In this document: one piece after another, positions 24,275 through 25,690 of the stretch
Numbering within the stretch: the first letter of the stretch is position 1
Layout: each line of letters begins with the position of its first letter
Assembly (NCBI GenBank): GCA_022791325.1
Contig: JAAVYV010000019.1
Span: 640 to 64,639, forward strand
Source of the DNA: Clostridia bacterium
Lineage (GTDB): Bacteria > Bacillota > Clostridia > TANB77 > CAG-508
Reading direction: 5' to 3'
Length of the DNA: 64,000 nucleotides
The notes under the pieces: model-generated
The model's input: only the letters and a program-made list of their open reading frames with translations
What the model was told of the DNA's origin: nothing
Databases searched by the model: none
Made by a program: the position numbers and the translations under genes

Positions 24275-24634
24275 ATGAGAGCTAACGAAATGTTTGAAGA
24301 ATTAGTACATGATTGTTTGGAGATATCAGTAGCTCTTAACAAAGAAGCTATAACTAATGGAATGAGTGATAGAATTCAACTGTTAAGCGGTTATTTGGAT
24401 AGTATAAAAATTTCACAAGGAAATTTAATTTTCCAGATGCCTTTTCTACACAAAGTTCCAGCAAACGACAAAATGAAAATTGCAGTATTGGTAACAAAGT
24501 ACACATGTACATTAAAAGATCTTGCATCCGAAATATTTGACGAAAGAAGAAACTATGAAGTAAGCAAGATTTTTCATATGGTAACTAAAATGTATGAAAA
24601 ATTTGAAAAGATCATTTTAGAAGAACTGGAGTAG
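24275..24634 (+). CDS. Hypothetical protein
   Basis: 119-aa ORF. Its 3' end and terminator are duplicated at 25511-25600. Confidence 0.4.
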   Translation: MRANEMFEELVHDCLEISVALNKEAITNGMSDRIQLLSGYLDSIKISQGNLIFQMPFLHKVPANDKMKIAVLVTKYTCTLKDLASEIFDERRNYEVSKIFHMVTKMYEKFEKIILEELE

Positions 24635-24750
24635 TTAGTTTTACAAAATAAAGCGGGGAAATCCTCGCTTTATTTGTGTTTTATAACTTTAATTTTTCTA
24701 TAATTATTGTAAGTGACGGTTATAAAAAAATAGAAAAACCACAAAAAGTA

Positions 24751-24780
24751 TTGACATAATGAATAAAATGGTTATATAAT
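24751..24780 (+). promoter_or_regulatory. Sigma-A-type promoter (TTGACA-18-TATAAT) for ToxIN-like cassette 2
   Basis: TTGACA 24751-24756 and TATAAT 24775-24780. Spacer sequence is closely related to the cassette 1 promoter. Confidence 0.6.
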
Positions 24781-24819
24781 AAATACAATAGTAGTGGATA
24801 TTTAATATCTACTATAATT

Positions 24820-24930
24820 AAAAAATGTGAGTCGCAACCCTATTTGCGTCGAATAAATGGATAGGTGAAAAAATGTGAACCGCAACCCTGCTTGCGAGAT
24901 ATAAATGTGCAGGTGAAAAAATGTTAATTA
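24820..24930 (+). ncRNA. Putative type III antitoxin RNA: 2.3 tandem 48-nt repeats
   Basis: AAAAAATGTGAGTCGCAACCCTATTTGCGTCGAATAAATGGATAGGTG, then a 48-nt variant, then a partial third repeat. Followed by terminator hairpin 24939-24975 and the toxN-like gene. Confidence 0.6.
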
Positions 24931-24938
24931 TAGTAAAG

Positions 24939-24975
24939 TATGGGGTCTATAAAATTAATTTAGATCCCATATTTT
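24939..24975 (+). terminator. Hairpin terminator between antitoxin repeats and toxN-2
   Basis: TATGGGGTCT-loop-AGATCCCATA followed by a T-run. Confidence 0.55.
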
Positions 24976-24995
24976 CATAAAAAGGAGTAAAAACA

Positions 24996-25484
24996 ATGTT
25001 AATAGAAGATGGAAAATTTTATTTTATAAAAGATGAGTTCTTTGATGTGTTTAAAAAATATAAATTAATGGAAAATAAAGAGAATGGTAATAAAAGACCT
25101 TGTTATTTTTGTTTTAAAGACAGAAAAGATAAAAATATAATATGGTTTGTTCCAATATCAACTAAATATGAAAAATATAAAAAAATTTATGACAATAAAA
25201 AATTAAAAGTTGGAAATCGACCAGTTTATAATTTCGTTTTTGGAAATGTACTAGGAAAAAAGGCAGTATTTTTAATACAAAATATATTTCCGATAACGGA
25301 AAAATATATAGCTGAAAAGTACATAAATTCAAATATAGATGTAGAAATTCCAAGAATAGTAAGAAATGAGATTATAACTATTGCATTAAGAGTAGTAAGA
25401 CTTGCAGAAGAAGGGATAAATGTTCCATTTTATAATATAATTGAAATGAAAAACATACTATTAGAAGAAAACCACATAAAATAA
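24996..25484 (+). CDS. toxN: Type III TA toxin, ToxN/AbiQ-like endoribonuclease (divergent second copy)
   Basis: 162 aa. FYFIKDEFFDVF...NKRPCYFCFKDRKDKNIIWFVPISTKYEKY parallels the KRPY..V...YFVPL signature of ToxN/AbiQ. The preceding repeat array and terminator fit type III TA organisation. Confidence 0.65.
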   Translation: MLIEDGKFYFIKDEFFDVFKKYKLMENKENGNKRPCYFCFKDRKDKNIIWFVPISTKYEKYKKIYDNKKLKVGNRPVYNFVFGNVLGKKAVFLIQNIFPITEKYIAEKYINSNIDVEIPRIVRNEIITIALRVVRLAEEGINVPFYNIIEMKNILLEENHIK

Positions 25485-25690
25485 AGAAGATACTATTTCT
25501 TTTTGCGTGGTAAAATGTATGAAAAATTTGAAAAAATACATTTTAGAAGAACTTGACTAGTTAGTTTTACACAATAAAGCGGGGAAATCCTCGCTTTATT
25601 TACATTTGACAAATATCGAAAAACAATAAAAAAGTATTGACAAACAAAAATAAATAATATATACTAACCACAACAAAAGGAGGAAAAATA

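Follow-up and report, generated by a model that had tools for sequence, protein, structure and literature searches.

A CptIN-family type III toxin-antitoxin cassette, probably gained by insertion behind an orphan gene, in a Clostridia genome

The window analysed here is a stretch of 64,000 nucleotides (nt) from a Clostridia bacterium (assembly GCA_022791325.1, contig JAAVYV010000019.1, positions 640 to 64,639). Positions 24751-25601 of this window hold what appears to be a complete, functional-looking type III toxin-antitoxin (TA) cassette of the CptIN family. It lies between an orphan gene, which we call gene X, and a gene for a DUF2975 membrane protein, and it is bracketed by two copies of the 3′ end of gene X. 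The features of the locus are the following, in window coordinates:

24275-24634, forward strand: gene X, an orphan gene of 119 amino acids (aa) whose 3′ end is duplicated.
24586-24675, forward strand: left copy of the direct repeat, spanning the final 49 nt of gene X, the stop codon, and then a spacer and a terminator.
24676-24750, forward strand: left portion of the insert, not present at the empty site described below.
24751-24780, forward strand: cptIN promoter, TTGACA-18-TATAAT, 12/12 consensus positions.
24791-24815, forward strand: 5′-terminal stem-loop of the cptI transcript (-10.6 kcal/mol, z = -4.15).
24821-24868, forward strand: CptI repeat 1, 48 nt, with predicted pseudoknot stems S1 (24833-24837/24844-24848) and S2 (24839-24843/24861-24865).
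24869-24916, forward strand: CptI repeat 2, 48 nt, 77% identical to repeat 1.
24917-24929, forward strand: start of a third repeat, 13 nt, AAAAATGTTAATT, recognized by sequence.
24938-24979, forward strand: intrinsic terminator between cptI and cptN, a hairpin (24938-24975) followed by a T-tract (-18.7 kcal/mol, z = -5.3).
24996-25484, forward strand: cptN, 162 aa, an endoribonuclease toxin by family assignment, with an AGGAG ribosome-binding site.
25485-25510, forward strand: short junction segment, possibly a degenerate extra piece of gene X.
25511-25601, forward strand: right copy of the direct repeat, in which the gene X 3′ end survives in frameshifted, non-coding form, followed by a terminator.
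25637-26221, forward strand: right-hand neighbour, the DUF2975 membrane-protein gene (25691-26221) with its promoter.

The assignment of the toxin carries the identification of the cassette. The 162-aa open reading frame (ORF) scored 155.2 bits against the CptIN equivalog profile of NCBIfam (NF047359, cutoff 90), covering profile positions 1-150 of 150, and it matched PDB entry 4RMO_A, the CptN protein of Eubacterium rectale, over residues 7-141 (E=1.3e-17). The original prediction had named it ToxN-like and had proposed a search against ToxN, AbiQ and CptN profiles. That search upheld the ORF but changed its family: neither Pfam PF13958 (ToxN_toxin) nor the AbiQ profile of PADLOC matched at E<=1, and the ORF of a second cassette nearby (cassette 1, described below) matched both strongly in the same searches. 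The ToxN-like label was therefore dropped, and the module is to be seen as a member of a described family rather than as a divergent ToxIN. Membership of TenpIN is unlikely because the CptIN equivalog match is strong and full-length. Relatives of CptN are numerous (996 at E<=1e-10). One unannotated phage protein family, PHROG 33519, matches CptN at E=3e-19, and a scan of viral contigs with CptN returned no relatives. The values for the window (repeats of 48 nt, 2.2 copies, a toxin of 162 aa) lie inside the published ranges of the family, i.e., 40-48 nt, 1.9-3.4 copies and about 150-162 aa (PMC3401426). Relatives at 32-44% identity were seen on seven plasmids, from Clostridium perfringens, Megamonas, Fusobacterium and others; in the 2012 survey, cptIN was only chromosomal (Blower 2012, PMC3401426).

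Residues of the putative active site were compared in a 12-sequence alignment that includes 4RMO. Ser55, Thr56, Lys57 and Tyr109 align with Ser51, Ser52, Arg53 and Tyr104 of the E. rectale protein; Ser55 and Tyr109 do not vary, the triad motif admits Thr56 at its Ser/Thr position, and lysine stands in place of Arg53 in all subfamily members checked. A supposed 145-aa variant of cptN in one scaffold (L004) proved to be a run of N and not a biological form. No locus that we fetched was found to contain multiple copies of cptN.

The order promoter, repeats, terminator, toxin is that of the cptIN family. Comparison of at least 25 genomic contexts showed conservation of the module to extend from the -10 region through the final codons of cptN, where homology among cassettes from different contexts stops; the C-terminal tail of cptN and all sequence beyond it are specific to each context. 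The promoter and the hairpin ahead of cptN are both present as originally proposed, and this hairpin and the sequence of the 5′ hairpin are conserved in other cptIN cassettes. At the position of the 5′ hairpin, one cassette (L116) carries, by eye, a hairpin of unlike sequence.

The antitoxin RNA is encoded by a tandem array with a period of 48 nt, as had been noted, although its extent is 24820-24924 with 2.2 copies (score 138 in Tandem Repeats Finder, TRF) and not 24820-24930 with 2.3. The cptI arrays of 80 metagenome loci and of several assembly loci, whose CptN proteins are 64-87% identical, supplied 42 distinct units, which we aligned. The H-type pseudoknot that was tested on them was drawn from the E. 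rectale architecture, which has a single-base L1 and an A-rich L2 (PMC4627078). In alignment columns, S1 pairs 13-17 with 24-28 and S2 pairs 19-23 with 41-45, leaving a one-base L1 and a 12-nt A-rich L2 that contains AUAAAUG. Across the 42 units, 99% of cells fall in standard pairs, as opposed to 27-46% when the partner is slid by 1-3 columns; compensatory changes on both sides occur at seven of the ten pairs, and none of 500 shuffles did as well. The two repeats of the window are themselves two compensatory pairs apart in S2 (CCTAT/ATAGG in repeat 1, CCTGC/GCAGG in repeat 2). Their boundaries, ...GGTGA|AAAAATG..., resemble the processing site GA|AAG of the E. rectale RNA (PMC4627078). By analogy, we infer that repeat 2 is cut at its 3′ side in the context given by the 13 nt of the incomplete third repeat. 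Rfam holds no family covering CptI.

In the same alignment (A8, units of the window and of loci L031-L119) every array of this CptN subfamily contains two repeats that are not identical, set apart chiefly by compensatory changes in S2. Each of these variants is conserved among loci with toxins that are 13-35% divergent. It may be that the two RNA variants are not interchangeable and that, as far as the alignment can suggest, they form an obligate hetero-RNA pair in the toxin-RNA ring.

How the module would work can be read by analogy from its family. The strong promoter would act constitutively and yield a short transcript with the 5′ hairpin, the two CptI repeats and the start of the third. 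Most transcripts would end at the terminator before cptN, leaving antitoxin RNA in excess over toxin, and the remaining read-through transcripts would give CptN, a predicted endoribonuclease. CptN would then cut the precursor at the A-rich boundaries ...GGUGA|AAAAAUG... and bind the freed 48-nt pseudoknots in an inactive protein-RNA ring, which in E. rectale is a heterotetramer (PMC4627078). If transcription stopped or the RNA decayed, e.g., upon loss of the locus or takeover by a phage, free CptN would be expected to cleave cellular RNAs and arrest growth. The E. rectale system stabilizes plasmids and gave no phage protection in E. coli (PMC3401426); addiction is therefore the demonstrated role, and defence a hypothesis.

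We now turn to how the cassette came to lie where it does. The direct repeat of about 90 bp described in the original prediction is real, with its first copy at 24586-24675 instead of 24577-24666 and its second at 25511-25601. The alignment suggested there gives five differences in 91 columns (94.5% identity), including a 1-nt insertion in the right copy that breaks the reading frame, and the right copy is thus non-coding and decayed, as had been said. The terminator hairpin of the left copy (24646-24675) folds at -19.2 kcal/mol (z = -5.8), and its counterpart in the right copy (25573-25601) now follows cptN. The terminator core AAAGCGGGGAAATCCTCGCTTT occurs in exact form only at these two places in 64 kb, with 0 expected. 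A terminator-like match at 12182 was considered as a third copy and rejected since its flanks are unrelated. Searching the window for non-coding direct repeats within 3 kb of each other (>=36 nt, >=90% identity) returned only one other case, which resembles a repetitive extragenic palindromic (REP) element and lies in the fab operon. The only ORFs of at least 40 aa wholly between the two copies are cptN and a minus-strand ORF inside it, and no recombinase is among them; another minus-strand ORF, of 42 aa, reaches into the final bases of the right copy. Exact-protein look-ups found the arrangement X, cptIN, remnant and DUF2975 gene in more than 20 independent assemblies; it is therefore no assembly artefact.

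A related contig, L029, provides the empty site whose existence in related genomes the original prediction had proposed to check. It contains the 3′ end of an ABC-F gene, a gene X homologue, a single terminator and the DUF2975 gene, with no cassette: the DUF2975 gene follows X directly, and only one copy of the repeat is present. Its flanks are 92-97% identical to those of the window, and the sequence after its terminator matches the right flank of the window and not the left. The gene X homologue, P0002, is 77% identical to X. Since both the X allele and the repeat variant of L029 are peculiar to it, it is not a collapsed version of an occupied site, and the window consequently carries a true insertion; the earlier reading of the repeat as an insertion footprint is borne out. 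We take this comparison of occupied and empty sites to show that an ancestor of this uncultured Clostridiaceae lineage acquired the module as an insertion between X and the gene for the DUF2975 protein. Judging from the same sequences, X and its terminator remained intact on the left, and the right side gained a duplicate, now decaying, of at least 49 nt of X plus the terminator. Within the 26 nt that follow the cptN stop codon (25485-25510), AGAAGATACTAT matches X 24544-24555 at 11 of 12 positions (three of 500 shuffles were as good), and this segment may be a further degenerate piece of X.

Gene X is itself peculiar. No Pfam, NCBIfam or PHROG match was found, homologues number only three among 5.8 billion proteins, and a scan of genome contigs recovered X in the same species only. 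It is hypervariable (24160-24634 in the window): in L020 (2473-2944) the body of the gene is about 68% identical at the nucleotide level, inside flanks of 99-100% identity. The leader at its 5′ end, which includes the hairpin TCGGAGGGAAATCCTCCGA (24232-24250), is conserved as far out as the 49%-identical homologue of L030 (440-877). These comparisons suggest allele swapping and a conserved leader element. An AlphaFold2 model of the protein (mean predicted local distance difference test score, pLDDT, 93.9) has four helices plus a beta-hairpin, and searching this predicted fold against the PDB returned no match at E<=0.001.

Such a variable and recombining gene could be taken to mean that a tandem paralogue of X once lay downstream and that cptIN replaced nearly all of it by illegitimate recombination, the right repeat being its relic. 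The different allele inside identical flanks in L020 would suit this view, as would the remnant, which differs from every current allele and whose degenerate continuation may reach the cptN stop codon. The empty site L029 and the locus of the 49%-identical homologue in L030, however, have a single X each, no contig was found with a tandem X, and the remnant is closest to the resident allele (94.5%); moreover, the comparable duplications that we found at two other loci (L043 and L116, below) involve single-copy genes or an intergenic region. We therefore hold a lost paralogue to be very unlikely.

The left end of the insert is less simple. No significant match to 24676-24750 was found in any fetched locus or elsewhere in the window; a resemblance to the sequence that follows the X homologue in L030 was discarded (113 of 500 shuffles as good). 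The -10 box and the sequence downstream of it, TATAATRAATAYAATAGTAGTRG, are conserved in the cptIN cassettes of most other contexts, and the -35 box and spacer of the window differ from the canonical cptIN cassette promoter found elsewhere. This promoter is one of two perfect consensus matches in the 4.7 kb scanned, the other driving cassette 1, 2.9 kb upstream. The two share the -35 box plus spacer TTGACAWAATGAATAAAA (21868-21885 and 24751-24768), which has two matches in the window against 0.12 expected. The likeness is thus above chance, although calling the promoters almost the same was generous, as 24 of 30 positions agree in the core and 71% over 68 nt. Promoter conversion between the neighbouring cassettes or shared regulation are both possible sources of the shared stretch, as far as it can be read from the letters. 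A different haplotype was found in L016 and L027, which come from two studies: it has the canonical promoter and a different left flank, together with the same X remnant and DUF2975 gene, and its cptIN appears identical to that of the window across the whole cassette in a three-way alignment.

Several observations weigh against a CptIN module gained by insertion between X and the DUF2975 gene. On the left, the junction is untidy: the -35 box and spacer are non-canonical and 24676-24750 has no match among the loci fetched, and such a composite junction requires more than one event. The contig with the empty site is single, short (1.6 kb) and from a more distant lineage. The L016/L027 haplotype could represent assembly paths through two identical copies of cptIN. 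As to the family assignment, the equivalents of Asp81 and Ser85 of the E. rectale toxin, which are said to specify or read the cleaved adenine, are not conserved in the 12-sequence alignment. Taking both parts of this reading jointly, i.e., the CptIN identity and the gain by insertion, we put its probability at roughly 85%.

The same composite junction would also suit an inactive relic whose repeat is the leftover of misaligned homologous recombination between strains, with no specific biology behind it; the neighbouring ABC-F gene, which appears as a pseudogene in many strains, adds a sign of local decay. We find this highly improbable. All complete contigs encode an unbroken cptN of 162 aa that retains the predicted catalytic residues, and close relatives of CptN, such as P0004 (95% identity), are full length. 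The promoter matches the consensus at every position, and both CptI repeats persist throughout the family, where they show compensatory changes.

A candidate source for the inserted copy comes from other loci. The cotJC gene of L016 is interrupted by an element that codes for a 519-aa large serine recombinase and a radical-SAM protein, and cptIN occupies the right end of this element; in L035, cptIN at 87% identity lies at the right end of such an element, adjoining the 3′ part of cotJC. The stretches concerned are 1421-5750 in L016, 380-660 and 1575-1700 in L035, and 56-332 in L027. This linkage implies that cptIN is carried by a mobile element in these bacteria, and the source of the copy at X was probably cptIN carried as cargo by an element of this kind. 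A non-coding stretch with GTTCAC/GTGAAC palindromes precedes the cassette and is conserved between L016 (~5396-5610) and L035, with no match in Rfam; the motif recurs after cptN in L035.

Flanks upstream and downstream of the cassette were also compared in about 37 representative cptIN loci, and most have no flanking repeat. Two further, independent cases resemble the window. In L043 (2005-2044 and 3031-3070), the last 40 nt of spoIIID plus half of its terminator are duplicated at 100% identity around an insert of about 1 kb with cptIN, between spoIIID and mreB/mbl. In L116 and L117, a 50-nt intergenic segment upstream of spoVS is duplicated at 96% identity (L116 2202-2251 and 3529-3578) around cptIN plus about 550 nt. 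Apparent flanking repeats at L044, L073 and L092 turned out to be cptI or promoter remnants of neighbouring cassettes and were set aside as not being target duplications. The three repeat pairs of the window, L043 and L116 are unrelated in sequence and have no common core, and none of the three inserts encodes a recombinase; a single attachment (att) site used by one integrase is therefore unlikely.

This bears on the view that the direct repeats are the attL and attR sites of a degenerate, non-autonomous integrative element similar to a cis-mobilizable element (CIME), whose ~0.9-kb cassette would be moved by a recombinase acting in trans, either the large serine recombinase of the cotJC element or a tyrosine integrase. 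A gene 3′ end repeated to the left and right of inserted DNA is classically what integrase-mediated integration leaves behind, and the physical linkage of cptIN to a serine-recombinase element in L016 and L035, the recurrence of the footprint at L043 and L116 and the presence/absence polymorphism seen with L029 all speak in its favour. Large serine recombinases cross over within 2 nt and are not known to leave repeats of 40-90 nt, which counts against it. So do the three repeat pairs without a common core, the repeat identity of only 94.5% with differences spread along its length, the failure to see any excised copy or any copy at an alternative site with the same ends, the lack of a flanking repeat at most of the ~37 loci, and the composition of the insert and its surroundings, where the neighbours are ABC-F, X and DUF2975 genes and no integrase is found. 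On balance, we consider such an att-based origin unlikely.

For the insertion that we favour, homology- or repair-driven routes fit better with these sequences, and the duplication would then be the product of recombination or repair and not of an enzyme encoded by the cassette. Candidate routes are a single-crossover (Campbell-type) integration of a circle carrying the target segment, the fill-in of a long staggered break (e.g., by non-homologous end joining in spore formers), and template switching during replication. That the recurring duplication of targets reflects a specific and general mechanism is doubtful, and we offer it as a lead and not as a finding. In the same tentative vein, one could picture cptIN as nomadic, recombinase-less modules that enter at gene ends or terminators and duplicate 40-90 bp of their target, a generalization that would probably fail.

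The surroundings of the cassette include a second type III module upstream, with the following features:

21868-22576, forward strand: cassette 1, a type III TA cassette of the ToxIN/AbiQ family (Pfam PF13958 1.5e-43, PADLOC AbiQ 1.2e-39).
21868-21897, forward strand: promoter of cassette 1.
22029-22061, forward strand: terminator of cassette 1.
22085-22576, forward strand: toxin ORF of cassette 1.

The original prediction of two type III modules from different families is thus correct, one being of the ToxN/AbiQ kind and the other CptIN. The antitoxin region of cassette 1 (21898-22084) has only two unequal repeats, which is unusual for ToxI/antiQ arrays. They share a 20-nt identical core (21935-21954 and 21990-22009), and unit 1, of 55 nt, has a loop insertion of about 19 nt relative to unit 2, of about 36 nt; TRF did not report them. 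A weak direct repeat of 31 nt (21796-21826 and 22561-22591, 77% identical) brackets cassette 1 and could be due to chance in AT-rich DNA or be an older footprint.

Between the two cassettes lies an intact ABC-F gene (22669-24159, 496 aa). Its protein scores 487 bits with NF000355 (cutoff 380), which places it in the ribosomal-protection type, but it falls below the Lsa cutoff (699 vs 750). In many strains (L001, L004, L006, L010, L011 and L013) the gene is called as ORFs of 81 and 417 aa, and this split suggests a frameshift polymorphism or pseudogenization. The other neighbours encode ABC exporters, helix-turn-helix (HTH) regulators, GNAT, a pentapeptide protein, NUDIX, NT5C, the DUF2975 protein with an HTH_26 partner and DUF4153. 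PADLOC found no further defence gene among the proteins tested, its matches to the ABC-F protein being those of a generic ATPase. The suggestion of an addiction or defence island did not hold up: only the two TA toxins qualify, and such a reading has little strength, the neighbours being ordinary accessory genes with metabolic, regulatory or transport roles. By its gene content, the region is a variable accessory region and not a defence island by the usual criterion. GC-rich palindromic repeats similar to REP elements or to miniature inverted-repeat transposable elements (e.g., GTAGGGGCGATTAGTAATCGCCC) occupy intergenic sites at 26227-26283, 26364-26418, 37187-37328, 34096-34307 and 36536-36747, including sites between fatty-acid synthesis genes.

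Taken together, these results turn a hypothetical 162-aa ORF and the "non-coding" sequence upstream of it into a complete CptIN type III TA module that Pfam and PADLOC had missed. The locus also offers a clean natural example of the gain of a TA cassette: the site is seen both occupied and empty, the footprint is precise, and there is an element that could plausibly have been the donor. The module belongs to a well-described family; all that is out of the ordinary is that long target duplications recur around a cassette devoid of recombinase. The duplications at two other loci give a small lead on how compact TA modules move without a recombinase of their own, which is poorly understood; if the picture of nomadic modules were true, it would describe a general route by which small TA modules spread without a transposase. 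Beyond this lead, knowledge of type III systems is unchanged.

Among known systems, the closest is CptIN of E. rectale (4RMO; Blower 2012, PMC3401426; Rao 2015, PMC4627078). The gene order of promoter, about two repeats, terminator and toxin is alike, and the toxins are homologous at a protein identity of roughly a third (in the 12-sequence alignment), with the equivalents of the Ser, Ser/Thr, basic triad and of Tyr104 retained, lysine replacing arginine in the window, and those of Asp81 and Ser85 not conserved. Both RNAs are predicted or known to form an H-type pseudoknot with a one-base L1, an A-rich L2 containing AUAAAUG and GA|AA boundaries; the repeat has 48 nt in the window and 45 nt in E. 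rectale, being longer because of a longer L2. A further point of difference is that the window has two unlike repeats (77% identity), either variant being conserved in the subfamily. ToxIN of P. atrosepticum and B. thuringiensis and AbiQ/antiQ follow the same type III logic, in which the toxin excises its own pseudoknot RNA antitoxin from a repeat array and a terminator sets the RNA:protein ratio. ToxI repeats, however, are about 36 nt long in 2.8-5.5 copies, compared with 48 nt and 2.2 copies in the cptI of the window, and ToxIN is a heterohexamer whereas CptIN is a heterotetramer (PMC4627078). Integrase-driven islets and CIMEs resemble the window in having direct repeats that duplicate the 3′ end of an upstream gene, which stays intact, and in having an empty site; the window differs in that no integrase is present in the insert or next to it, no core is shared at the three loci, and the insert is only about 0.9 kb. 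Finally, the intervening elements of sporulation genes (skin and SPbeta-like) carry cptIN at their right end in L016 and L035 and are a plausible vehicle and source, but they split their target gene, whereas the insertion in the window duplicated the end of its target and the element itself is absent from the window.

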